A stretch of 64,000 nucleotides of DNA from an uncultured Gammaproteobacteria bacterium (GTDB lineage: Bacteria > Patescibacteriota > Patescibacteriia > UBA2591 > UBA6264): contig CAZQVF010000005.1 of NCBI GenBank assembly GCA_964596735.1, positions 13,328 to 77,327 on the forward strand. The letters are read 5' to 3'. The position numbers were made by a program, and so were the translations under genes. Below are positions 14,824 to 24,893 of the stretch, piece after piece. The notes beneath the pieces were generated by a model, which saw only the letters and a list, made by a program, of their open reading frames with translations, searched no databases and was not told the DNA's origin. How positions within the stretch are numbered: the stretch's first letter is position 1; every line of letters starts with the position of its first letter.

Positions 14824-15162
14824 CTAATTTTTAGCTTCATCTAAGGCTTTCTCAACCTGGCTGACTTCTTCCTCTGTCTCATCAAGTAAAAATTTAATCT
14901 TAGGAATAAATTTAAGAAATAAGCTTTTATTTAATAATCTTTGTAAATAACCGATTCTCTTTGAAAGCTCTTTAAAAACTATTTTGGCCTGATTAATAGG
15001 AAAAACACTAATCCAAATTTTTGCCTGCAATAAATCGGTTGAAGTTTCTACATGAGTAATAGTAATTAACGAGCCTTCTGGCGGATCAATTTCCCTAAGA
15101 AAAATTTTGCTCATCTCTCTTTTAATCAATTCATTGATTTGTTCAATTCTTTGAGAACACAT
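14824..15162 (-). CDS. rbfA: Ribosome-binding factor A
   Basis: RIEQINELIKREMSKIF... is RbfA-like. The ORF track starts at 15192, but those first 10 codons are the conserved promoter cassette (TTGAAA-N17-TATAAA-A-ATG), so the start is moved to ATG 15162. Confidence 0.7.
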   Translation of the reverse strand: MCSQRIEQINELIKREMSKIFLREIDPPEGSLITITHVETSTDLLQAKIWISVFPINQAKIVFKELSKRIGYLQRLLNKSLFLKFIPKIKFLLDETEEEVSQVEKALDEAKN

Positions 15163-15213
15163 TTTTATAATTAAAATATTTTTTAATTTCAAGGTTCTGC
15201 GAAACAGGTTCTT
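15163..15213 (-). promoter_or_regulatory. Promoter cassette copy upstream of rbfA (-35 TTGAAA, 17-nt spacer, -10 TATAAA, 1 nt before ATG)
   Basis: Minus strand: AAGAACCTGTTTCGCAGAACCTTGAAATTAAAAAATATTTTAATTATAAAAATG. Confidence 0.55.
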
Positions 15214-15775
15214 AAAAACGAAAAAATTTAAAAGGCCTTTCTGTTAAATCAACTATAATTGATGGTTGACCAGTTAATCCCTCTCCTTTTAAGGCCAGAT
15301 TTACCTGTTGACTAAATTCTTTAGTTATCTTTTTTATACTCAAACTAGGTTGAAAGCCTGACATATTAGCGCTAGTTGTGGTTATTGGAAAATTCTTGCT
15401 TAATTGTTGACAAACCTCTGAATCAGGAATACGGACACCAATCGTTTTTTTACCCCCGGTCAAGATTTTAGACACTTTAGCTTTCTTTTTTAAAATAAAA
15501 GTAAAAGGCCCTGGCAAAAGGGCTGACATTAACTTTTCTTGTTCTTTATTAACCCGGGCCAAATCTTTAATTTCCTTTAAACTTGAAACTATTACAGACA
15601 AGGGTGCTTTAAACTCTCTACCTTTTATTCTAAAAACTTTTTGAATTGCCCCCTGATTAAAAATATCTGCTCCCAGACCGTATAGCGTGTCTGTGGGGTA
15701 AATAATTACTTCGCCTTGTTGCAAGGCCTTTCTTGCTTTTCTTATATTTATCTTAGTTGGTGAATAAACTAACAT
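15212..15775 (-). CDS. tsaC: L-threonylcarbamoyladenylate synthase (YrdC/Sua5 family)
   Basis: YrdC fold motifs: EVIIYPTDTLYGLGADIFNQGAIQKVFRIKGR, SANMSG. Confidence 0.75.
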   Translation of the reverse strand: MLVYSPTKINIRKARKALQQGEVIIYPTDTLYGLGADIFNQGAIQKVFRIKGREFKAPLSVIVSSLKEIKDLARVNKEQEKLMSALLPGPFTFILKKKAKVSKILTGGKKTIGVRIPDSEVCQQLSKNFPITTTSANMSGFQPSLSIKKITKEFSQQVNLALKGEGLTGQPSIIVDLTERPFKFFRF

Positions 15776-15777
15776 AT

Positions 15778-16329
15778 TTAAAGACCTAATTCCTTAGGAA
15801 TACTTTGCATTGCCCTTAAACTAATTTTTACAAACTCTTCAAGTGACAAATCTAGTTCTTCACAAGCGGCAATAGTTTCTCGATTAGCTCCTCGGGCAAA
15901 TCCCTTTTCTTTATACCTGTTTAAAACGTTTTCTGCACTTAAATTAATAATTTTCTTGTTTGGCATAACCAAGGTCGCCGCAACAATTAAACCAGTAATC
16001 GGGTCTGCACAAAAAAGGGCCTTGGTCATTTTATCTTCACGAGGCAAACCATGAATTTCATTATGAGCCTTAACAGCCGTAATGACTTCTGAATCAATTC
16101 CATGTTGCTGGAGCATTTCCGCCCCTAGCAAACTATGTTTTTCTGGAGTATCTTTGGTTTCTTCATAATCAATATCATGTAAAAGTCCGGTTAAAGCCCA
16201 CTTTTCAATGTTTTCATTGAAATATTTTGCTAATTCCTTCATTACTGCTTCTACGGCCAAGCAGTGCTTAACCAGATTTCTATTTTGAATCTTTTCCTCA
16301 ACTAATTTTAGAGCCTCTTCTCTAGTCAT
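15778..16329 (-). CDS. HD-domain phosphohydrolase
   Basis: H...HD motif (KHCLAV...LLHDID); 183 aa. Confidence 0.5.
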   Translation of the reverse strand: MTREEALKLVEEKIQNRNLVKHCLAVEAVMKELAKYFNENIEKWALTGLLHDIDYEETKDTPEKHSLLGAEMLQQHGIDSEVITAVKAHNEIHGLPREDKMTKALFCADPITGLIVAATLVMPNKKIINLSAENVLNRYKEKGFARGANRETIAACEELDLSLEEFVKISLRAMQSIPKELGL

Positions 16330-16991
16330 TAAAGCAATTTAAAGTTATTAATCACTAAATGGAATTTATACCCCAGATAATTAGCGGCTTGACGGCAATA
16401 AGTCATCCTTTCTGTAAAAATTTCAAAAAATTCTATAACTGGAACAAACTTTTGGTCAATCTTTAAGGTAAGAATAATCTGTTTTTTAGATCTATTAATA
16501 CTTAGATCTGATTTGGTTACTGCATAATTCACTCGATCATGAATATCGAGCTTAATTTTTTCTAAAGATTTAACTGTTACTCGGGAACGATGAACATCTG
16601 ACTTGTCAGCCAATACAACAATGGCAGATATAGGCTCTGTTAATTTCATTGTATTTTTATCATGATTAGAGATTGCCTGCATTATCCAAACAAGTTCTTT
16701 GGAGGTAAAATCATTTTTAAAAATCTGATGGAATAAAAGGGAACCCCAATAATGATGTTGTGAACGACCTAGAAAATTACCCATATCATGACAAAAGCCA
16801 GCAATAGCTGCCAAGTCTTGACCCCTTTCACTTAGATTAATTTGTTTGGCTAAATTTTTAGCCTCACGCGCAACTAATTTAGCATGGCGCAAGCCATGTT
16901 CAGTATAATCTAATGCCTTAATAGTAATTTCAGACTGATTAATAAACTCCAAAATTTTTGGATGTTTTTTTATGTCTTGAAATGTTAACAT
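16329..16991 (-). CDS. HD-domain phosphohydrolase (second, tandem)
   Basis: HGLRHAKLVAREA...FCHDMGN HD motif; 220 aa. Confidence 0.5.
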   Translation of the reverse strand: MLTFQDIKKHPKILEFINQSEITIKALDYTEHGLRHAKLVAREAKNLAKQINLSERGQDLAAIAGFCHDMGNFLGRSQHHYWGSLLFHQIFKNDFTSKELVWIMQAISNHDKNTMKLTEPISAIVVLADKSDVHRSRVTVKSLEKIKLDIHDRVNYAVTKSDLSINRSKKQIILTLKIDQKFVPVIEFFEIFTERMTYCRQAANYLGYKFHLVINNFKLL

Positions 16992-16997
16992 ACAATT

Positions 16998-17231
16998 TTA
17001 TTTAATATTTAATTTTTCCTTAAACTTTGGGACATCAAATCCCATAATCATTTCCCCGTCGATTTCTGTTACGGGTACGGCCATCTGCCCTGTTTTTTTA
17101 ATAAAATCATCAACCAGATCCTGATGTTGACTAAGATCAACCTCTTCAAACTCGATTTTATTCTCATTTAAAAAATCTTTGACATGGTGGCAATAAAGAC
17201 ATGATGGTGATGTATAAACAATTATTTTCAT
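16998..17231 (-). CDS. Glutaredoxin/NrdH-like thiol-disulfide oxidoreductase
   Basis: 77 aa, CLYC active site in a thioredoxin-fold context (KIIVYTSPSCLYC...VPVTEIDG). Confidence 0.6.
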   Translation of the reverse strand: MKIIVYTSPSCLYCHHVKDFLNENKIEFEEVDLSQHQDLVDDFIKKTGQMAVPVTEIDGEMIMGFDVPKFKEKLNIK

Positions 17232-17266
17232 ATATTCTTAGTTAATTGGTTATTTACTGTTAGTAT

Positions 17267-17422
17267 AAGAACCTGCTTCGCAGAACCTTGAAATTAAATT
17301 CTATTATATATAAATTAAGGTAATTTAATTATAAGAACCTGCTTCGCAGAACCTACCTGCCGGCAGGCAGGCCTTGAAATTAAATTCTATTGTATAAATA
17401 ATAATGTATTTTAATTATAAAG
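17267..17422 (+). repeat. Two tandem orphan copies of the promoter cassette (17267-17332 and 17333-17422); the second carries a 12-bp GC palindrome insertion CCTGCCGGCAGG
   Basis: Copy 1 reproduces the aspS upstream region through ...TAAGGTAATTTAATTATAAG, including the equivalent of aspS codons 1-4. Copy 2 carries the GC-rich palindrome at 17356-17367. No + strand ORF follows; both point into the 3' end of the minus-strand RT gene. Confidence 0.55.
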
Positions 17423-17464
17423 ATTAGAAAAAGCTCGTCAAGTTATCTTATTTTGTAATAATAT

Positions 17465-18511
17465 TTATTCTACTAAACCTACTTTCTTTCTAAATTTATA
17501 CGTATTTCCGTGAATCAATAGTCCTTGATAAGAAATAACTGTCTGTCGTTTTGGATAATTCTTTAATCTTCTAATTATCTTTCGCTTTGTGGTTGTTCGA
17601 ATCTGTCGATAGCATGGAAAATGTATCCAGCCCAAAAAATCTAAACCCGAAGCATAAGTTCTAATACAAACCTTGTGTTGATGAAGTGTCAATTTAAGTT
17701 CTTTTTGTAAAAATTCAGTGATTCTTAACAATAAACCATTGAGATACTCTTTATTGTCCGATAAAATAACGAAATCGTCGCCATATCTAATATAATATTT
17801 CACTCGCAATTCCTGTTTTATATACATATCAAATTCGTGCATATAAACATTAACGAAAAGTTGGGAAGTGAGGTTGCCAAGGGGCAGACCTATCCCCAAA
17901 CGGCTGGAATAAAAACTAAAAACTACCCTTTCAATCAACCGAATAATTTGAGAATCGTTAATGTGTCTCTTTAATATTTTAATAAGGATTTGCTGATCAA
18001 TGTTAGCAAAAAATTTCTGAATATCGCATTTTAGAATATAACAAGTTTGAGAATTATTTTTTGATACCTTCTGGGCAAAATATCTGAATCTGTTCAAAGC
18101 GCGATGCACTCCCTTGTTTTCTCTACACGAATATACATCATAAATAAACTTTCTATCAAAATAAGGACACAGCTCCTTATAAATGAGATGATGTAATAAC
18201 CGATCACGCACCGTAGCTTTGTGAATATTTCTCGGCTTGGGGTCAGAAATATTAAAAGCCGAATATGGTCCGTGAATATAAGTAAAATTAACCAGAGACT
18301 TATAAAGATCTATTAAATTATCGGCCAGCTTTATTTGAAAAATCATCACATCTTTTTTATGTCTTTTACCACACAAAAAACGCTCCCAAGTCGCTAAGAG
18401 ATTTTCTATCTTAATAATATCAATATATTTAACTTTAAACATATGACTACAATATCTGCGCGAGTACCATTGGTGCTTGTTAGAACAAAAAGGGCTTATC
18501 AAATTTGGCAC
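17465..18511 (-). CDS. Diversity-generating retroelement (DGR) reverse transcriptase
   Basis: RT motifs including LPLGNLTSQLFVNVYM ([ILV]GxxxSQ, DGR-specific) and YIRYGDDFVIL (YxDD). N-terminal ENLL...GKR.K...PY.AF.I.DPKPR.I..A...DRLLHHLI pattern typical of DGR RTs. The real start may be Met24 (18442). TR lies ~330 bp upstream. Confidence 0.85.
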   Translation of the reverse strand: MPNLISPFCSNKHQWYSRRYCSHMFKVKYIDIIKIENLLATWERFLCGKRHKKDVMIFQIKLADNLIDLYKSLVNFTYIHGPYSAFNISDPKPRNIHKATVRDRLLHHLIYKELCPYFDRKFIYDVYSCRENKGVHRALNRFRYFAQKVSKNNSQTCYILKCDIQKFFANIDQQILIKILKRHINDSQIIRLIERVVFSFYSSRLGIGLPLGNLTSQLFVNVYMHEFDMYIKQELRVKYYIRYGDDFVILSDNKEYLNGLLLRITEFLQKELKLTLHQHKVCIRTYASGLDFLGWIHFPCYRQIRTTTKRKIIRRLKNYPKRQTVISYQGLLIHGNTYKFRKKVGLVE

Positions 18512-18820
18512 AAAAATTTAGTCAATCTTAATCGACTTGATCGCTATACTATTGGTGCTAAAATCGATGAATATTTTCTATCTTTATTGGAATTAATTTT
18601 TAAGGCCTGTTTTGCTTACGATAAATTTGAAAAACTCTCAATGGTATCACAAGCGATTGGTAAAAACGATTTATTAAAATTCTTTTTACAGATTGGTTGG
18701 GAACAAAAAACCATTAACCATAAAAATTATGGTCTTCTAATACTTTTACTTGATGAAGTTGGTCGAATGCTGGGTGGCTGGAAAAAAAATATACAAGAAA
18801 AAACTCCCGCTAGTAAGTAG
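18443..18820 (+). CDS. Avd-like accessory variability determinant (four-helix-bundle, 23S rRNA IVS protein family), on the opposite strand
   Basis: 125 aa, predicted all-helical. C-terminal LDEVGRMLGGW resembles the conserved Avd/four-helix-bundle motif, and AYQIWHK resembles the N-terminal helix. It sits between TR and RT, on the opposite strand. Confidence 0.5.
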   Translation: MTTISARVPLVLVRTKRAYQIWHKNLVNLNRLDRYTIGAKIDEYFLSLLELIFKACFAYDKFEKLSMVSQAIGKNDLLKFFLQIGWEQKTINHKNYGLLILLLDEVGRMLGGWKKNIQEKTPASK

Positions 18821-18840
18821 CAGGAGAAAAAATTAAATAA

Positions 18841-18960
18841 GTCACAGAAGCAGAGCAGGCAGTCGTTATCATCCCAAGCGTTCTCAAAGTTGCCGAGGTT
18901 GAAATTAAAGTCATCATCCGAGTTGCGGTTGACATTCGGCACGCGGTAGTTGCCGTCAGA
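18841..18960 (-). repeat. DGR template repeat (TR), 120 bp, Asn(AAY)-codon rich
   Basis: 120-nt alignment to 19299-19418 with 16 mismatches. All 15 internal mismatches are A in the TR coding (minus) strand; one T/C mismatch lies at the extreme 3' (IMH-like GC-rich) end. Read in the VR frame it gives SDGNYRVPNVNRNSDDDFNFNLGNFENAWDDNDCLLCFCD. Confidence 0.85.
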
Positions 18961-19189
18961 CAATGTACAGCCCGCCACCTTTTTCACTAAGGGTAACGCC
19001 AGTCGCCCTCTGTATTTTATTCTGAGCCAAAATGCTCAATAGCACGCTGCACCGACTGATTTAATTTTTTCATAAAAGGTTGCACTCATTTACTAAGCAT
19101 GCCCAGTAAATTCCTGGCAAACTCCCTTTACGAGAATTCGATGATATAAAGCCATGGCCACATATCCAATCTATTATCCAAAAATATTA

Positions 19190-19238
19190 TACAGAAAAAA
19201 TACATAAAAGAAAAGGGTCCTTACATTGGTAAGAACCC
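19190..19238 (-). terminator. Rho-independent terminator downstream of the DGR target gene
   Basis: Minus strand: GGGTTCTTACC-AATG-TAAGGACCC hairpin (one mismatch) followed by TTTTCTTTTATGTATTTTTT. Confidence 0.5.
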
Positions 19239-19289
19239 AAAGGGTCAAAAAATCCAAAGAACAGGACTAAGAAACCAAGTGCCTAAGCA

Positions 19290-19997
19290 CTAATCGCAGT
19301 CGCAGAAGCAGAGCAGGCAGTCGCTATCATCCCAAGCGTCCTCAAAGGGGCCGAGGAAGAAAATAAAGTCACCAACCGAGTAGCGGTCGACAGACGGCAC
19401 GCGGTAGCTGCCGTCAGAATCGATCCAGAGAGCCTCTTTCTCATCAAACGAGACAGACCAACGGCTCTTTGGCAACTTGTTTTTGGCAAGTTCATAGACC
19501 AGTGAAGCGCCTTGAGCGCCGGCTAAAACAGCTTTCTGAGAATACAGGAAATTTAAACAGTCTTCCGAAGTCACAGTTTCTGTGATATTAAAAACCTTTA
19601 CCTTGAACTTTCTGCCAGGCACGAGCTTTGTTGTCGCTTTGTTAAAGTGCTTATCAGTGATGTCGGAATTGTAGTAATTAAATTCCGAGCCATGCGCTGC
19701 TGCAAAGTCAGTCAAGCGCGTAGCATGGTCGTAACCCTTAGGCACAACAATGTTAAACGCATTGGCCAATTTGAAGCGCGGGTCAGGCATAAACGGTGAA
19801 AGAGCTTGCTGACGTTGTTTCTGTGTCAGATTTAAAAAACATTCATATTCTGGCAAACTCATTTGCCCTTTCTTGATCTTCTGATTGCAATCCATATGCA
19901 GACCAGCCAATTTGGCCGCTTCTGCGCCGATAGATGTCTTATCCATCATTTTCTCCTTTGATACCAAGAGTTTAATAATTGACCCCATGCCAATCAT
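19290..19997 (-). CDS. DGR variable (target) protein, 235 aa, with the variable repeat encoding its last ~40 residues
   Basis: C-terminus ...SDGSYRVPSVDRYSVGDFIFFLGPFEDAWDDSDCLLCFCDCD is the diversified counterpart of the TR-encoded peptide. No signal peptide is evident. Confidence 0.75.
   Translation of the reverse strand: MIGMGSIIKLLVSKEKMMDKTSIGAEAAKLAGLHMDCNQKIKKGQMSLPEYECFLNLTQKQRQQALSPFMPDPRFKLANAFNIVVPKGYDHATRLTDFAAAHGSEFNYYNSDITDKHFNKATTKLVPGRKFKVKVFNITETVTSEDCLNFLYSQKAVLAGAQGASLVYELAKNKLPKSRWSVSFDEKEALWIDSDGSYRVPSVDRYSVGDFIFFLGPFEDAWDDSDCLLCFCDCD
19299..19418 (-). repeat. DGR variable repeat (VR) at the 3' end of the target gene
   Basis: See TR. A GC-rich invariant 3' segment (CGACTGCCTGCTCTGCTTCTG) forms an IMH-like end. 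A small hairpin GTGC-TTAG-GCAC abuts the stop codon. Confidence 0.85.
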
Positions 19998-20092
19998 TTT
20001 CTCAGTATTGATAATATTATGTCATATTTTAGCCTTTTTGTCAACACTCCTATTCCAAAAGACTTAAAATTTATATTAATCTAAAATAAAAA

Positions 20093-20200
20093 CACCGCCG
20101 AGGAGAATCGAACTCCTGAGACGGATTTGCCTTTAGCGGAAAACCTGGCGTCCTACAATGCTTAATAAATTAAAATGGCCCCGAGGAGAATTGAGTGAAA
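20093..20200 (-). other. Two tRNA 3'-end-like fragments (T-arm plus acceptor 3' strand), possible integration scars
   Basis: Minus strand: GGAGTTCGATTCTCCTCGGCGGTG (20093-20116) and CAATTCTCCTCGGGGCCA (~20177-20194). No complementary 5' acceptor strand or D/anticodon arms could be built. Confidence 0.3.
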
Positions 20201-20201
20201 A

Positions 20202-20891
20202 TTATTTTAATCCACTTTGTAATTTTAACGCGTCAATCCATCCTTTAATTCGAAAAGCTATCTTACGACCATGTACACGTAAATCAAGTGTGCCATATGG
20301 CAAAGAATTGATTGGACGTTTTCTGTTGCTCGCTTTGCTTATTTGTTTAAAAATGCGAAAACGACTTTTAGGAATATTAGTTACTCTAGCCCAAAAATTA
20401 ATGGCAGATTGCTCGCTAATATTAGCATGTATTCTAACACATACTTTTAATTTCTCTTCAGGGACTTTAATAATTTCTCGTAAAAAGCGAAGAAACAACG
20501 CAATCATATAAGGATCAGCATTAACAAAATCAACTACATACCCTTTGTTTTTTTGAGCCTCAATTTTATATCCCTCTGCCCAATAAAGAGCATTTGCAAC
20601 TAATAATAACTCATATTTTGACAACGAATGAATTTCATTAAAAGTCTCCTTCTTTATTCTCTGATTTTCAATCCAAATAGCACGTGTCCGTTGCCGATTG
20701 TTTTCAAATAACCCATGTTCTCGAGCAATTCTCGTTTTTTTTTCTAAAAGCTTTTTTGCTGACTTTGTTAGTTTTAAGTCTCTAAACCAAACGCTAAGCG
20801 AGCCCTTGGAAACACTTAAAGTACGAGCTATTTCATTGTAACTTTTACCCTTTAACCGCAACCTGAGCGCTTTTTGATATTGTGGATGCAT
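20202..20891 (-). CDS. HTH-domain protein of unknown function (transposase-type HTH; possible homing-endonuclease-like C-terminal region)
   Basis: KGKSYNEIARTLSVSKGSLSVWFRD is a transposase/sigma-region-4-like HTH; NALYWAEGYK is vaguely LAGLIDADG-like. The ORF track starts at 20954 inside tRNA-Glu; I prefer Met22 (20891). Confidence 0.35.
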   Translation of the reverse strand: MHPQYQKALRLRLKGKSYNEIARTLSVSKGSLSVWFRDLKLTKSAKKLLEKKTRIAREHGLFENNRQRTRAIWIENQRIKKETFNEIHSLSKYELLLVANALYWAEGYKIEAQKNKGYVVDFVNADPYMIALFLRFLREIIKVPEEKLKVCVRIHANISEQSAINFWARVTNIPKSRFRIFKQISKASNRKRPINSLPYGTLDLRVHGRKIAFRIKGWIDALKLQSGLK

Positions 20892-20909
20892 AATAATTAA
20901 ATATATAAG

Positions 20910-20982
20910 TAGCGCCAAGGGGAATCGAACCCCTGTTACATGGTTGAAAACCATGTGTCCTGACCACTAGACGATGGCGCCA
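20910..20982 (-). tRNA. tRNA-Glu (anticodon TTC)
   Basis: Minus strand GGCGCCATCGTCTAGTGGTCAGGACACATGGTTTTCAACCATGTAACAGGGGTTCGATTCCCCTTGGCGCTA. D-arm TCGTCTAG...GGAC as in bacterial tRNA-Glu, anticodon loop TTTTCAA, canonical TTCGATT T-loop, G1-U72 wobble. Confidence 0.8.
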
Positions 20983-21053
20983 TTATTATTTAGCGCAATC
21001 TTAGCAAAATTAAACGAATTTGTCAAAGAATTAATTTATGTTAAAATAATCTT

Positions 21054-22112
21054 ATGCTTATCTTAGGTATTGAAACATCTTGTGATGAAACAGCGGCGGC
21101 TGTTTTAGAATATAAGCCCTTAAAAAAAGAAGGTCAGTTTAAAGTTATTTCCAATGTTATTTTTTCACAAATCTCAATTCATCGTCAATACGGAGGTATT
21201 ATTCCTGAGGTAGCCGCCAGGGCTCATATTGAAAATATTTTACCAGTGATTAAAAAATCTCTTAAAAATATAGATTATAGAAAAATCGATTTAATTGCTG
21301 TTACTCAAGGGCCGGGGCTAATCACATCGTTATTAGTTGGTTTAGAAACTGCTAAATCTTTATCCTATTCTTGGAAAAAACCATTAATGGGAATTAATCA
21401 TTTACAAGGTCATTTGGCGGCTAATTTTATTGAACATGAAACAAAGAATGTTTTTCCGGCAATTAGCTTAATTGTCTCTGGTGGACATACTGAACTTGGC
21501 TTAATGAGAAAGTCTGGTCATTATAAAAAAATTGGACAAACTAGGGATGATGCCGCTGGAGAATGTTTTGATAAAATCGCTAAATTATTAAAAATCGGCT
21601 ATCCTGGAGGTCCAGTTATCTCTAAAATGGCTGAAAAAATAAACAACAAATCAAATAATATCTGCTTTCCTCGCCCCATGATCAAAACAAATGATTTTGA
21701 TTTTAGTTTCTCGGGACTAAAAACAGCTGTACTTTATTTTGTTAAAAAGAATAGAAATAAACTAGAAAAGAAAAAATTTATTCAGAACATTTGTGCTGAA
21801 TCTCAACAAGCAATTATTGACGTTTTAATTCATAAAACAATTAAAGCAAGTAAAAAATATAAAGCCAAAGCTATTTTTCTAAGTGGTGGAGTGGCCGCCA
21901 ACCAAGAACTAAGAGAACAATTGAAGCTCCATGTTTGTAGATTGCCAAATAGTGTAAAATTCTTTGTTCCATCAAGAAATCTTTGCACTGATAATGCGGT
22001 AATGATTGCTGCAGCCGCCGCCCTCAAATTCAAAAACTTAATACCAATTCAAAGGAAGAAATTAAAAAATAATTGGCAAAAAATAAAAGTAGATCCTAAC
22101 TTAGAAACATGA
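21054..22112 (+). CDS. tsaD: tRNA N6-adenosine threonylcarbamoyltransferase (Kae1/TsaD)
   Basis: MLILGIETSCDETAAAV...GGVAAN motifs. Confidence 0.9.
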   Translation: MLILGIETSCDETAAAVLEYKPLKKEGQFKVISNVIFSQISIHRQYGGIIPEVAARAHIENILPVIKKSLKNIDYRKIDLIAVTQGPGLITSLLVGLETAKSLSYSWKKPLMGINHLQGHLAANFIEHETKNVFPAISLIVSGGHTELGLMRKSGHYKKIGQTRDDAAGECFDKIAKLLKIGYPGGPVISKMAEKINNKSNNICFPRPMIKTNDFDFSFSGLKTAVLYFVKKNRNKLEKKKFIQNICAESQQAIIDVLIHKTIKASKKYKAKAIFLSGGVAANQELREQLKLHVCRLPNSVKFFVPSRNLCTDNAVMIAAAAALKFKNLIPIQRKKLKNNWQKIKVDPNLET

Positions 22113-22534
22113 AAACAACTACCAAATCAGAAAAACAAACCCTTAATTTAGGTAAAAACTTTGTTTTAGAGCTTAAAGGAGGTGAAGTAATTGGTTTTAT
22201 TGGTGAATTAGGGGCCGGAAAGACTGTTTTTATCAAAGGACTGGCCCAGGGACTAAACATTAAAAACATAATTACCAGTCCTACTTTTGTTTTAATGAAA
22301 ATATATAAAGCAAAGGGGCCAATAAAAGATCTCTGTCATGTTGATGCCTATCGTTTAAAATCTGCTCAAGATCTAATTGACATTGGCATTAAAGACTATT
22401 TAAACAAAAAAGCCGCTGTTACGGTAATTGAATGGGCTGATCAAGTAAAAAATATTTTGCCAAAAAATAAAATTCTTGTTAAAATAAAAATTGGTAAAAA
22501 TCCGAACCAAAGAATTTTTGAAATTATTAAATAA
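22109..22534 (+). CDS. tsaE: t6A biosynthesis ATPase TsaE (YjeE)
   Basis: 141 aa; Walker A GELGAGKT, followed by the TsaE-specific region. Overlaps the tsaD stop. Confidence 0.75.
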   Translation: MKTTTKSEKQTLNLGKNFVLELKGGEVIGFIGELGAGKTVFIKGLAQGLNIKNIITSPTFVLMKIYKAKGPIKDLCHVDAYRLKSAQDLIDIGIKDYLNKKAAVTVIEWADQVKNILPKNKILVKIKIGKNPNQRIFEIIK

Positions 22535-22535
22535 T

Positions 22536-24893
22536 ATGGGAAAAGCATACGAACCCAAAGAATATGAATCAAAAATATATCAACTCTGGGAAAAGAGCGA
22601 ATTTTTTAATCCTGATAAGCTGCCCGGTAAACCAAAAAAAACATACTCTATCTCTATCCCTCCACCAAATGTTACTGGATCTCTTCACCTTGGCCATGCT
22701 TTAAATAATACGATTCAGGATATTTTGACCAGATTTTATCGCATGAAGGGAAGAAAAACACTTTGGTTGCCTGGAACAGATCACGCTGGCATTGCGACAC
22801 AAAATGTTGTGGAAAAAGAATTAGCCAAACAAGGGTTAACTCGTCACCAATTAGGCAGAGAAAAATTTACTGAAAAGGCTTGGCAATGGAAAGCAAAATA
22901 TGGTGATTTAATTCTAGAACAATTAAAAAAACTTGGCTGCTCTTGTGATTGGTCTAGAACTCGCTTTACCTTAGACAAAGACTATGCAGAAGCGGTTTTA
23001 ACTGCTTTTATTAATTATCATAAAAAGGGATATATTTATCGCGGACCAAGAATTGTTAATTGGTGTCCGCGTTGCACCACAGCCATTTCTGATATTGAAA
23101 TAAAATATCAAGAAAAAAAAGGCAAACTCTGGTATTTAAAATATCCTTTTAAGGATAATCCTAATAAATTTATAGTTGTAGCAACTACTCGCCCAGAAAC
23201 TATGCTAGGAGACACAGCTGTGGCCGTAAGTCCTAAACGTGAAAAATATAAAAAGTTGATTGGAGAAAAACTAATCCTCCCCATTATGAACCGAGAAATT
23301 CCTTTGGTGTCTCACCATTTAGTTGATGCTGAGTTTGGTACAGGGGCGGTGAAAATTACTCCGGCTCATGATAAAACTGACTGGCAAATTGGTAAAGAAA
23401 ATAATTTGGAGGTGATAAACGTTATTGGGGCAGAGGGGAAAATGACCAAGGAAGCGGGAAAATATTCCGGTCTACCTGTTTTAGAAGCAAGAAAAAAGAT
23501 TATTGAAGAATTGGAAAAATTAAATCTCTTGGAAAAAATTGAAGACTATCAACATCAAATCTCTCTTTGTGATCGCTGTAGCACACCAGTTGAGCCTCAG
23601 ATTTCTACTCAGTGGTTTGTGGCTATGAAAAAATTAGCCAAACCAGCTATTAAAGTTGTAAAAAAATCAAAAATAAAAATTTCTCCTAAACGTTATAAAA
23701 AAGTGTATTTAGATTGGTTGGATAATATTGAAGATTGGTGTATCTCTCGTCAACTTTGGTGGGGCCATCGATTACCAGTTTGGTTTTGCCAAAAACAAAA
23801 AGATAAATATCTTGTCTCTATAAATCAACCTAAAAAATGTCCTTATTGTAATAAGTGTAAAATGGACCAATCTGAAGATGTGCTTGATACCTGGTTTTCT
23901 TCAGCCCTATGGCCGTTTGCTACTCTTGGCTGGCCTAAAAAAACAAAGGATTTAAAAGAATTTTACCCTACTTCTCTGCTTTCCACGGCTAGAGACATTC
24001 TTTATCTCTGGGTGGCTCGTATGGTTTTTTCTAGCTTAGAATTTTTAAAAAAAATACCGTTTGAACAAGTCTATATCCATTCCACCATTTTAACACTGGA
24101 GGGCCGACGCATGAGCAAATCATTAGGAACTGGTATTGACCCATTGGAGTTAATAAATAAATATGGAGCTGACGCAACCCGATTTGGTATAATTTACCAA
24201 ACAAATCGCGACCAACAAGCGATTCGTTTTGACGAAAGAGCTATCGTTGCCGCTCGTAATTTTATTAATAAACTTTGGAATATTAGTCGTTTTATTGCCA
24301 TACAAATTGAAACAGAGCCAGAAATAAAAATTAAAAATATTAAAACGCAAACTTTAGCTGATCAATGGATTGTTTCAGGGGTTAATAACTTAATTACTTC
24401 AGCGACAGAAAAAATTGAAAATTACGAATTTGGTGAAGCTAGTAAAGAAATTTATGATTTTATCTGGCATGATTTTGCTGATTGGTATTTAGAAATCTCA
24501 AAATTCCAAATAGCTGATTCTAGACTAAAAAAAGAGACTATTCGTAATTTAAAACTTGTTCTTTGTCTTTGTCTAAGACTGCTTCATCCTTTTACTCCTT
24601 TTGTTACGGAACAAATTTACCAACAACTTAATGCTTGTCCTGACTCCTCAGATTTATTAATGATTGCCTCTTGGCCAAGGGTAAAAAAGAATTTTATCAA
24701 CCCAAAAAGAGAAAAAGAATTTGCTAGCGTAAAAGAAATAGTTATGGAAATTAGGAATTGGAAAGTGGATAAAAAAATATCCCCAAAAGAAATAGTGGAT
24801 TATAAAATTAAGCCAGAAAACAAAAAAATCCCAGTTCAAAACGAACTTAAGGATTTAATTGAAAAATTAGGTAAAATAAAACTAGTTTTCTGA
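22536..24893 (+). CDS. valS: Valyl-tRNA synthetase
   Basis: PPPNVTGSLHLGHAL (HIGH), KMSKSLGTG (KMSKS) and a ValRS-type editing/CP1 region. Start moved from 22491 to ATG 22536 (MGKAYEPKEYESKIYQLWE), immediately after the tsaE stop. Confidence 0.85.
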   Translation: MGKAYEPKEYESKIYQLWEKSEFFNPDKLPGKPKKTYSISIPPPNVTGSLHLGHALNNTIQDILTRFYRMKGRKTLWLPGTDHAGIATQNVVEKELAKQGLTRHQLGREKFTEKAWQWKAKYGDLILEQLKKLGCSCDWSRTRFTLDKDYAEAVLTAFINYHKKGYIYRGPRIVNWCPRCTTAISDIEIKYQEKKGKLWYLKYPFKDNPNKFIVVATTRPETMLGDTAVAVSPKREKYKKLIGEKLILPIMNREIPLVSHHLVDAEFGTGAVKITPAHDKTDWQIGKENNLEVINVIGAEGKMTKEAGKYSGLPVLEARKKIIEELEKLNLLEKIEDYQHQISLCDRCSTPVEPQISTQWFVAMKKLAKPAIKVVKKSKIKISPKRYKKVYLDWLDNIEDWCISRQLWWGHRLPVWFCQKQKDKYLVSINQPKKCPYCNKCKMDQSEDVLDTWFSSALWPFATLGWPKKTKDLKEFYPTSLLSTARDILYLWVARMVFSSLEFLKKIPFEQVYIHSTILTLEGRRMSKSLGTGIDPLELINKYGADATRFGIIYQTNRDQQAIRFDERAIVAARNFINKLWNISRFIAIQIETEPEIKIKNIKTQTLADQWIVSGVNNLITSATEKIENYEFGEASKEIYDFIWHDFADWYLEISKFQIADSRLKKETIRNLKLVLCLCLRLLHPFTPFVTEQIYQQLNACPDSSDLLMIASWPRVKKNFINPKREKEFASVKEIVMEIRNWKVDKKISPKEIVDYKIKPENKKIPVQNELKDLIEKLGKIKLVF

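Follow-up and report, generated by a model that had tools for sequence, protein, structure and literature searches.

Diversity-generating retroelements (DGRs) have been catalogued in their tens of thousands, and the ultra-small CPR (Patescibacteria) bacteria are well known for carrying many. The survey by Paul et al. in 2017 is reportedly the first of DGRs in CPR/Patescibacteria. In the phage and Legionella DGRs, a GC-rich inverted repeat (cruciform) downstream of the IMH is needed for efficient homing, and such a repeat is found in 34% of DGRs. In architecture B3 of Wu et al. (2018, PMC5758913), which is typical of CPR, TR is followed by a reverse-strand avd and then by RT, written TR-(avd)-RT, and Roux et al. 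(2021, PMC8144416) assigned the CPR DGRs to DGR clade 2. An Avd-binding stem-loop, commonly of 9 bp, has been located just downstream of TR (Handa et al., bioRxiv 10.1101/2023.10.23.563531). The locus examined here lies in a window of 64,000 nt, by which we mean the whole stretch of DNA analysed, and as a DGR it is an ordinary element of a known kind. We hold it to be almost certainly an active, chromosomal DGR of the CPR/Patescibacteria clade with the architecture TR-(avd)-RT.

The cassette is compact (about 2.5 kb), with the target gene, VR, TR and RT all carried on the minus strand and an antisense avd between TR and RT. The reverse transcriptase (17465..18442, minus strand; 325 aa from an ATG at 18442) matches RVT_1 with E=2e-21, and its best PDB match is Bordetella phage bRT 8ub7 (E=5.9e-40, full-length alignment), with group II intron RTs at 2e-17. 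It has the GIGLPLGNLTSQLFVNVY and YGDD motifs and shows the DGR motif LGNLTSQ; NCBIfam gave sub-threshold matches only, to group II and other RTs. A mechanically drawn RT open reading frame runs further, to a GTG at 18511, while gene callers in other copies choose the ATG at 18442. Back to back with that ATG is the start codon of the accessory gene avd (18443..18820, plus strand, antisense to the TR-RT strand; 125 aa), the product of which scores 47.5 bits against Pfam PF22296 bAvd (cut-off 40; E=2.7e-12) and 52.6 bits against NCBIfam DivGenRetAVD, under the equivalog cut-off of 80. The original prediction of a complete DGR is borne out, as RT, Avd, TR, VR and target are all adjacent, with the addition that the placing of avd on the opposite strand had been overlooked. 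The same layout and A bias recur in 14 related cassettes from genomes and about 45 from metagenomes; in those from genomes 230 of 269 mismatches fall at A and the remainder clusters at the 3' end. A further candidate, L031/L039, read as a DGR with a remote second target, was rejected as one sequence assembled twice.

TR (18840..18960, minus strand) and VR (19298..19418, minus strand) align without gaps over 121 nt at an offset of 458, with 106 of the 121 positions identical and a sharp stop to the homology at both ends. Fourteen of the 15 mismatches fall at a plus-strand T of TR, that is, at an A on the coding (minus) strand, and there they become G (5), T (6) or C (3); for a TR with 28 A among its 121 nt, the hypergeometric probability of this bias is 7e-10. 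The one remaining mismatch (plus-strand A/G at 18844/19302) is a coding T-to-C change, TGT to TGC and hence synonymous, five bases from the 3' end. It is the only difference between the TR copy and the IMH-like 3' end of VR, a GC-rich stretch of 25 nt (GACTGCCTGCTCTGCTTCTGCGACT; 19298..19322, minus strand). The A positions inside this stretch are unvaried in all alleles, and at the equivalent NAC codon in relatives the base is variable in TR and the G is retained in VR. All nine Asn AAY codons of TR are altered in VR (to S, S, D, Y, I, F, P, D and S), as are two GAT codons (to V and G). The original prediction had reported 104/120 identities over 18841-18960, 15 internal mismatches plus a terminal one, and eight altered Asn codons. 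The repeat pair, the restriction to adenines and the alteration of Asn codons all stand, whereas realignment gives 105/120 identities, 15 mismatches rather than 16, of which 14 are at TR adenines, and nine Asn codons plus the two GAT codons. Its placing of the sole non-adenine mismatch at the GC-rich 3' end was correct, and the bias, which it held that a fuller alignment might overturn, stands. Its claim that the window contains a single such locus agrees with a scan of both strands in which a match was demanded solely at the non-A positions of TR and which returned only one VR. TR itself is non-coding and sits between the leader RNA described below and avd; an apparent 86-aa open reading frame over it is a mere mirror of the VR reading frame.

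VR forms the last ~40 codons of the target (variable protein) gene (19290..19946, minus strand), which encodes 218 aa from a Met at 19946 and ends with a TAG stop at 19290-19292. The reading frame is open from 19997 (235 aa), and close homologues begin at the Met encoded at 19946. Homologues number 147, in a family of about 150 unnamed CPR proteins. The conserved motif, ...RVPxVxRxSxGDFxFxLGxFExxWxDxxCLLCFCD, seems unlike the usual FGE-sulfatase or DUF1566 VR motifs. Pfam and NCBIfam searches of the target found no domain, a profile search against PDB sequences found no similarity to any solved protein, and a Foldseek search of its structural model against PDB and BFVD found no significant match. 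The model is confident and weakly resembles C-type lectin folds, which weakly suggests a divergent C-type-lectin-like domain at the VR-bearing C terminus. In comparison with the C-type-lectin-fold variable proteins of other DGRs (Mtd, TvpA, and archaeal and Thermus AvpA), the target is without sequence, profile or significant Foldseek similarity. It is a small, probably cytoplasmic protein in which no export signal is visible by eye, and its VR class is probably an unclassified 'UVR' or an ungrouped CPR one.

Just 3' of VR and the stop codon lies an array of five CTTNG motifs (19238..19287, minus strand; starts at 19287, 19279, 19271, 19259 and 19242), in which the first three are spaced by exactly 8 nt. 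Nowhere else in the window do at least four such motifs cluster in 80 nt. An array is present in 53 of 60 related cassettes, unrelated targets included, at a density of 3.85 against 0.43 motifs per 100 nt, and 74 of 171 neighbouring pairs show the 8-nt spacing; after TR there is no such array. A small hairpin, AGTGC-TTAG-GCACT (19291-19278, minus strand; 5-bp stem, 4-nt loop), begins 6 nt after VR. In the position of a cruciform after the IMH, the window shows no more than this 5-bp hairpin, and the conserved feature at that position is the CTTNG array; judged from this hairpin in this window alone, the VRs of this DGR clade may lack the GC-rich hairpin. An intrinsic-terminator-like hairpin with a T run (19205..19238, minus strand), which has an equivalent in relatives, is predicted to end the target transcript. 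The array sits between the stop codon and this predicted terminator and would be transcribed with the target. It is also found beside homologues of the target that lack an RT within 5 kb. Both observations would suit an array that acts on the target mRNA, as a 3' UTR binding site for a protein or sRNA, a stability element or a part of termination, and that is no DNA signal for retrohoming. We regard this as a serious possibility, falling only somewhat short of an even chance. Against it, the array persists where the targets have no detectable homology to the target in the window, and so tracks the DGR lineage rather than a protein family; moreover, it stands where the hairpin required by phage and Legionella DGRs is located, and it is absent after TR. 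If the array is instead a signal that marks VR, it might be read by pentameric Avd or by the RNP.

Directly 5' of TR, we find a structured leader of the template RNA (18961..19179, minus strand; ~220 nt), the helices of which covary. From the 5' end these are P1 (19165-19156/19153-19144), Px1 (19132-19124/19079-19071), Px2 (19120-19117/19083-19080), P2 (19111-19103/19096-19088) and a 12-bp helix, P3 (19052-19041/18976-18965), which encloses P3a (19038-19034/19027-19023) and P3b (19010-19002/18997-18989) and ends 4 nt upstream of TR; all are on the minus strand. RNAalifold finds 45 pairs, with compensation in 32. In our own 58-pair structure, 94% are paired and 41 pairs are compensated, a result reached by none of 500 shuffles. 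The minimum free energy fold of the whole TR region is no better than that of shuffled sequences (z=0.15); this single-sequence fold thus held no sign of the leader, which comparative analysis alone revealed. When the leader was searched for as two half covariance models, R1 and R2, each had one match in the window, and they matched 59/80 and 41/80 RT-anchored metagenome loci, respectively. About 70 related cassettes keep the leader. In nearly all loci its 3' end comes to within about 10 nt of where TR starts, and the leader co-occurs with the RT lineage irrespective of target family. Rfam searches, with gathering thresholds for the entire window and with E<=1 for 17300-21100, gave only tRNA and tmRNA and no match to the leader.

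Several elements around the leader suggest how far the template RNA extends. An extended -10 box (TGTATAAT; 19186..19193, minus strand) lies about 7 nt before the conserved GGAT with which the leader starts, and a TATAnT box is found at the equivalent place in relatives; we predict that it is the promoter of the template RNA. On the 3' side, a stem-loop (CUCCUGCUA-CUUAC-UAGCGGGAG, followed by U6; 18798..18826, minus strand) with a 9-bp stem and a 5-nt loop begins 13 nt after TR and overlaps the avd stop codon on the opposite strand. When close cassettes were folded one by one, all 15 of them showed it, with compensatory changes in the stem. By analogy with the stem-loop of Handa et al., it is likely to be the Avd site, and by its form it also looks like an intrinsic terminator. 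The leader may, in addition, contact the 3' end of TR through a pairing, P0, between AAAAAAUUAAAUCAGUC (19054..19070, minus strand), which is complementary to the last 4 nt of TR plus the linker, and GACUUAUUUAAUUUUUU (18827..18843, minus strand), which spans the TR 3' end and the linker. A single unpaired G (19053) separates the 5' strand of P0 from P3. Unrestricted RNAduplex runs of the leader against 260 nt downstream were dominated by GC-rich chance pairings and were uninformative. P0 was assessed by restricted, partner-permuted duplex tests, in which duplexes with a locus's own partner were stronger than cross-locus duplexes (0 of 5000 permutations).

These elements can be arranged in a mechanism, of which we infer the transcription, binding, priming and stop steps from the Bordetella phage DGR. 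A minus-strand RNA of about 380 nt, running from about 19179 to about 18798, would comprise the leader, TR and the 3' stem-loop. RT and Avd would bind this template RNA, with the 9-bp stem-loop 3' of TR as the likely site for Avd. Synthesis of cDNA would start at the 3' end of TR, where 19070-19054 of the leader may pair with 18843-18827; RT would misincorporate opposite template A and would halt at the 12-bp P3 helix, 4 nt upstream of TR. The cDNA would then replace VR, which would be marked as the recipient by its IMH-like GC-rich end and possibly also by the CTTNG array. The predicted outcome is hypervariation of at least 11 codons on a possibly C-type-lectin-like C-terminal domain.

It is also conceivable that the DGR is real and the leader stands outside the RT machinery, as a regulatory 5' UTR, a riboswitch, an sRNA or a stabiliser of the TR transcript, with priming and stop provided by other, unseen elements, for example, inside the antisense-avd region. 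The pairing in P0 is weak, and the role that we give the leader in cDNA synthesis is itself a prediction made by analogy. We nevertheless consider such a leader unlikely, if well short of negligible: the leader accompanies the RT lineage across target families, in nearly all loci its 3' helix reaches to within about 10 nt of the point at which TR-VR homology ends, and P0 joins it to the exact 3' end of TR in a partner-specific manner. Furthermore, 3' of TR the sequence is taken up, after only about 45 nt, by antisense avd coding sequence.

Other metagenomes supplied nine further contigs of this organism, which match the window over 2.6-8.7 kb apart from VR. Outside VR each copy has at most one single-base difference, apart from one scaffold-end N-run artefact (L002), and TR has the same sequence in every copy that reaches it. 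In contrast, VR is present as four alleles across contigs from different samples. These differ at 2 (L001-L004), 15 (L006) or 16 (L005) positions, all but one of which lie opposite TR adenines. Variation almost confined to TR-A positions on an otherwise invariant locus indicates that the element is apparently active, as far as alleles in assembled contigs can tell. The original prediction had proposed looking in metagenomic reads for VR heterogeneity at TR adenines only, and in assembled contigs this is what the four alleles show, with one exceptional position. A rival reading, in which the repeat arose by simple duplication (tandem or segmental), by conversion between paralogous genes or in assembly and the RT is nearby by coincidence, has in its favour nothing more than two 121-nt copies 458 nt apart. 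It is scarcely credible: the mismatches hit a single base in a single copy (P=7e-10), TR is non-coding and invariant while VR varies among samples at TR-A positions only, more than 60 independent cassettes repeat the arrangement, and independent JGI and ENA assemblies agree on the structure. In practice this reading, which takes in the assembly duplication against which the original prediction had cautioned, is refuted.

The locus offers a clean natural example of DGR activity, with four VR alleles on an otherwise invariant background of 8.7 kb. Its cassette comes from a well-sampled lineage, and on paper its template RNA can be traced from one end to the other, with a leader strongly supported by covariation. 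The CTTNG array is a candidate for the signal by which the target is recognised in a DGR clade whose VRs may lack the GC-rich hairpin, and as such it bears on the reprogramming of DGRs for directed evolution. Neither the leader RNA, the P0/P3 arrangement nor the CTTNG array is mentioned in the main text of Wu et al. (PMC5758913) or in Roux et al. (PMC8144416); with respect to Rfam and this DGR literature, the leader RNA and the array are possibly undescribed.

In its cassette, the locus does not differ from the CPR DGRs of architecture B3 and clade 2. It shares with them the order TR-(avd)-RT, an opposite-strand avd and one target, upstream, that has its VR at the C terminus; like them, it is chromosomal and placed among housekeeping genes, its target is without a recognisable domain or membrane signal, and its host is an AT-rich member of the Patescibacteria. 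A second close comparison is the Bordetella phage BPP-1 DGR (mtd-VR-avd-TR-brt; PDB 8ub7). Both systems have homologous RTs over the full length (E=6e-40) with LTSQ and YxDD motifs, an Avd homologue, a TR rich in AAY codons and a 9-bp stem-loop 3' of TR, and in both the GC-rich IMH has an IMH* that is nearly identical. Unlike that of the phage, the target here is not a tail fibre, and the IMH appears to be followed not by a GC-rich cruciform but by a 5-bp hairpin in the CTTNG array. In the phage RNA and in the RNA modelled here, a duplex at the TR 3' end lies beside a second duplex, the other strand of which is immediately 5' of TR, and the order of primer strand, 1 nt and stop helix mirrors Sp47-56, Sp57-58 and Sp59-70 of the phage. 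Rfam RT-10 (phage Sp; Weinberg et al. 2017) has no match in 17300-21100 at E<=1. The structured RNA that resembles Sp, primer-like and stop strands included, is upstream of TR here, whereas Sp is downstream of TR in the phage, and the stop-like helix is built from two upstream segments; 3' of TR there is a single stem-loop and then the antisense avd. We suggest, tentatively and with slightly more doubt than conviction, that the template RNA of CPR-clade DGRs is circularly permuted, with the prime/stop domain 5' of TR, and that in these DGRs an 8-nt-periodic CTTNG array marks VR instead of a GC-rich cruciform. Such a placing of the prime/stop domain would explain why avd can lie antisense directly after TR. 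If the analogy holds, the leader is a natural permutation of the phage RNA and would provide an independent test of a model of priming and stop in cis that comes from a single phage system.

The two copies of the repeat on which the prediction of a diversity-generating retroelement (DGR) was based form a gapless direct repeat of 121 nt (18840-18960 and 19298-19418), with homology that stops sharply at either end. Fourteen of the 15 mismatches between them fall where the first copy, the template repeat (TR), has an A on the minus strand (T on the plus strand), and the second copy, the variable repeat (VR), reads G, T or C instead; the remaining mismatch is a T-to-C change on the minus strand, 5 bases from the 3' end. 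As the minus strand of the first copy contains 28 A per 121 nt, this distribution is strongly biased (hypergeometric P=7e-10), in agreement with the adenine-specific differences originally predicted. The counts in that prediction require small corrections: identity over its span is 105/120 rather than 104/120, the mismatches number 14+1 rather than 15+1, and the changed codons are nine AAY, not eight Asn codons, together with two GAT. Scanning of both strands of the window at the non-A positions of the TR recovered this VR alone, confirming that there is a single TR/VR pair.

Read on the minus strand, the locus consists of a target open reading frame (ORF; 19946/19997 to 19290) whose last ~40 codons are the VR, a non-coding stretch of 337 nt between VR and TR, the TR, an antisense avd (accessory variability determinant) gene and a reverse transcriptase (RT) gene. 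The avd gene (18443-18820, on the strand opposite to the TR and RT) encodes 125 aa and scores above the Pfam bAvd cut-off, while the RT gene (18442-17465, minus strand) encodes 325 aa. The closest solved relative of the RT is bRT, the DGR enzyme of Bordetella phage (8ub7), with an end-to-end alignment at E=5.9e-40, as against about 1e-17 for group II intron RTs; in this alignment GIGLPLGNLTSQLFVNVY lies opposite the phage GVGIPIGSLTSQLFANVY and YGDD opposite YMDD. All components of a complete DGR therefore adjoin one another, as had been proposed. The start codons of RT (minus) and avd (plus) stand back to back (CAT|ATG at 18440-18445) with zero intergenic bases, and therefore the promoter or 5' untranslated region of each must sit within the other gene. 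This gap is 0-30 nt in relatives. No obvious Shine-Dalgarno sequence was seen ahead of either gene, and an RT mRNA reading through from the TR RNA would be antisense to the whole of avd.

The target of the window belongs to a 90%-identity cluster of four members, which differ solely in their last 40 residues. We aligned to the window nine contigs carrying cluster members from JGI and ENA metagenomes. Outside the VR these matched exactly over 2.6-8.7 kb (the longest spanning 15290-23997); the sole departures were scattered single-base differences, never more than one in a copy, and, at one scaffold end, an artefact consisting of a run of N. Within the VR, population copies L001-L004 each differ from the window at 2 positions, L005 at 16 and L006 at 15, and all but one of these differences are opposite TR adenines; the exception is a T-to-G change (Tyr to Asp) in L005 at the equivalent of 19406, among otherwise A-directed changes. 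The TR is identical across all population copies that reach it. VR heterogeneity at TR adenines, a further expectation of the original prediction, can thus be seen across populations in assembled consensus sequences. The DGR is complete and evidently active.

A confident AlphaFold model of the target (108 homologues; pLDDT 88.9 overall and >95 from residue 70) combines a helical part at the N-terminus with an alpha/beta domain, of which the VR forms the last three strands. A lectin-like fold is a candidate with moderate support, and neither a Foldseek search of the model against the PDB and viral models nor a search of the target-family profile against solved proteins yielded a significant match or a relative by sequence, respectively. 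No hydrophobic N-terminal segment was seen when the sequence was judged by eye, which agrees with published remarks on DGR targets of Patescibacteria (CPR). In all, 147 members of the target family could be detected. Every one is an unnamed protein encoded in a Patescibacteria genome (labelled Nomurabacteria, Paceibacterota, Zambryskibacteria, Taylorbacteria or Uhrbacteria), and none has a Pfam domain. The target stop codon is TAG (window 19292) in most homologues viewed, an impression rather than a formal tally.

A scan of species-representative genomes found a target homologue encoded at 32 loci. Fourteen of these have the whole cassette, arranged as in the window (target, ~350 nt, TR, antisense avd, RT), with 57-73% identity in RT and 55-78% in Avd. 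In these 14 cassettes, 230 of 269 TR/VR mismatches are at TR adenines and the remainder cluster in the last few bases. The other homologue loci are lone targets or decayed cassettes. L010, L032, L035 and ~14 others of the related loci L010-L041 are such cases: many lone homologues have no RT or avd within 5 kb and keep the CTTNG array described below, while at three loci the target is followed by a truncated RT and avd is missing; L032 keeps only a weak leader match (28 bits). Such loci resemble cassettes that have been orphaned or are decaying. Two target paralogues each are present in L011, L020 and L034. A second target in L031/L039 was rejected as an assembly duplication, as these are two contigs of one Nomurabacteria MAG, identical over the target gene, VR and ~200 nt beyond (~1 kb compared). 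Wu et al. (2018) designated the TR-(avd)-RT order as architecture B3, while Roux et al. (2021, PMC8144416) assigned the DGRs of CPR to a separate clade, the cell-encoded clade 2, with targets usually lacking recognisable domains, and predicted that the VR domains of this clade are new C-type-lectin variants. Because it fits this order, clade and domain-less type of target, the locus is a typical member of a known CPR DGR class and is not new in kind.

The genes flanking the DGR are housekeeping genes (tsaD, tsaE, an aminoacyl-tRNA synthetase, glutaredoxin, HD proteins, Sua5/YciO, ClpP and RNase Y), and hence the element is chromosomal and not obviously phage-borne. The GC content of the window is ~32% and the nearest protein relatives are from Patescibacteria. 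Positions 19001-20000, which hold the target gene, the VR and the greater part of the leader, with the TR just outside, have 43% GC versus ~32% in the rest. A minus-strand sequence at 20073-20160, ~50 nt upstream of the promoter of the target, resembles a tRNA 3' half (T-arm and acceptor, ...CAGGAGTTCGATTCTCCTCGGCGGTG). Over 46 nt it shows 76% similarity to the 3' end of an intact tRNA-Glu (20909-20981); neither ARAGORN nor Rfam called the 20073-20160 sequence a tRNA. Between the two lies an ORF (20202-20954, 229-250 aa) with an N-terminal HTH. An insertion at a tRNA gene may have left this remnant. A motif of ~25-56 nt (AACCTGCTTCGCAGAACCTTGAAAT...), each copy with a small terminator-like hairpin, occurs in two tandem copies just downstream of RT (17255-17420) and once, inverted, 2 kb off (15156-15214); the copies bracket the glutaredoxin/HD/HD/Sua5 block, with none elsewhere in the window.

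Between the target's terminator and the TR is a leader of ~220 nt (19179-18961, minus) that is conserved yet non-coding. RNAalifold on 15 cassettes gave 45 pairs, of which 32 show compensatory changes, and a fuller structure with two added helices has 58 pairs, 94% paired and 41 compensated, a level reached by 0/500 shuffles (slid controls, 37-49% paired). Within the leader, P3 stands out as the strongest element: a long-range helix of 12 bp (19052-19041/18976-18965) that encloses two hairpins. Covariance models of the 3' half (R1) and 5' half (R2) each had one match in the window (R1, E=5e-23). R1 matched 15/15 cassettes and 59 of 80 metagenome loci gathered by RT similarity, those missed being nearly all too short upstream of RT, and R2 matched 41/80, each adjoining an R1 match. 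When the 59 new sequences were aligned by fitting them to the model, 93% pairing was seen for the R1 structure, and 23/26 pairs were compensated. In nearly all loci the end of the R1 match lies no more than ~10 nt from the point where TR-VR homology begins, and the TR/VR pairs there are also A-biased. No match to the leader was found in Rfam 15, nor, assuming that they are present in that release, to the RT-associated motifs RT-1 to RT-19 of Weinberg et al. (PMC5737381), of which RT-10 is the phage spacer. In the DGR literature surveyed, which left out Paul et al. (2017), we found no description of a covarying leader that places a phage-like order of elements upstream of the TR, or of a periodic CTTNG array past the VR. 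The survey of Handa et al. (bioRxiv 10.1101/2023.10.23.563531) reached 40 nt from the TR on its upstream side and 100 nt on its downstream side, and hence would have missed this domain.

A stem-loop with a 9-bp stem and a U6 tail lies 13 bases past the TR (18826-18798, minus). The stem is present in 15/15 close cassettes (7-13 bp, most often 9 bp), with compensatory changes, and these stem-loops end in GGGAG followed by U3-6. In 207 of 278 DGRs that contain Avd, Handa et al. described putative Avd-binding stem-loops, mostly of 9 bp, at a short distance downstream of the TR; ours fits this description, and it also looks like an intrinsic terminator.

Directly past the VR and stop codon are five CTTNG motifs (starting at 19287, 19279, 19271, 19259 and 19242), the sole such cluster on either strand of the 64 kb. 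Across 60 cassettes the mean is 3.85 in the 100 nt past the VR versus 0.43 per 100 nt in the remainder of these loci, and 53 have at least three motifs; spacing is 8 nt in 74/171 successive pairs, with a unit of roughly R-Y-Y-C-T-T-N-G. The target stop often opens the first unit (TAG-NNC-CTTNG). No array follows the TR. As it is kept in distant cassettes whose targets have no similarity to that of the window, the array tracks the DGR lineage and not the target family. It occupies the place of the inverted repeat needed for efficient homing in phage and Legionella DGRs; the array of the window includes only a 5-bp hairpin. It is a candidate recognition signal for homing, and an mRNA 3' UTR element is likewise a candidate.

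A further leader segment, P0 (19070-19054, AAAAAAUUAAAUCAGUC), is complementary to 18843-18827 (GACUUAUUUAAUUUUUU), the final four TR bases and the linker to the stem-loop. Among 51 distinct loci, P0 pairs better with its own partner than with that of another locus (mean -6.0 versus -3.7 kcal/mol; 0/5000 permutations), and in a fixed register 68% of cells are paired versus 60 +/- 1% with shuffled partners (0/2000). Clear covariation is seen at one position (CG 11, GC 11, AU 6, UA 4, GU 4, UG 3); P0 is A/U-rich with internal loops, and the window has U-A where C-G prevails among relatives. The evidence for this pairing is statistical, and P0 is less secure than the leader helices P1-P3. In the Bordetella phage ribonucleoprotein, primer strand Sp47-56 pairs with the TR 3' end and, two nt on, Sp59-70 of the same strand forms with the segment immediately 5' of the TR a "stop" duplex, right before which cDNA synthesis stops. 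By analogy, P0 would prime cDNA synthesis and P3 would halt the RT. Two observations agree with these roles: TR-VR homology begins 4 nt past P3, and the TR base that directly precedes P0 on the 5' side (or the first base of the NAC codon, in relatives) does not match the VR and is never transferred. After the P0 5' strand there is one unpaired G and then the P3 5' strand, and the P3 3' strand stops 4 nt short of the TR. Hence, although the structured domain lies upstream of the TR here and downstream in the phage, both systems have a primer-like strand, a short gap (1 nt here), a stop-helix strand and its partner directly 5' of the TR.
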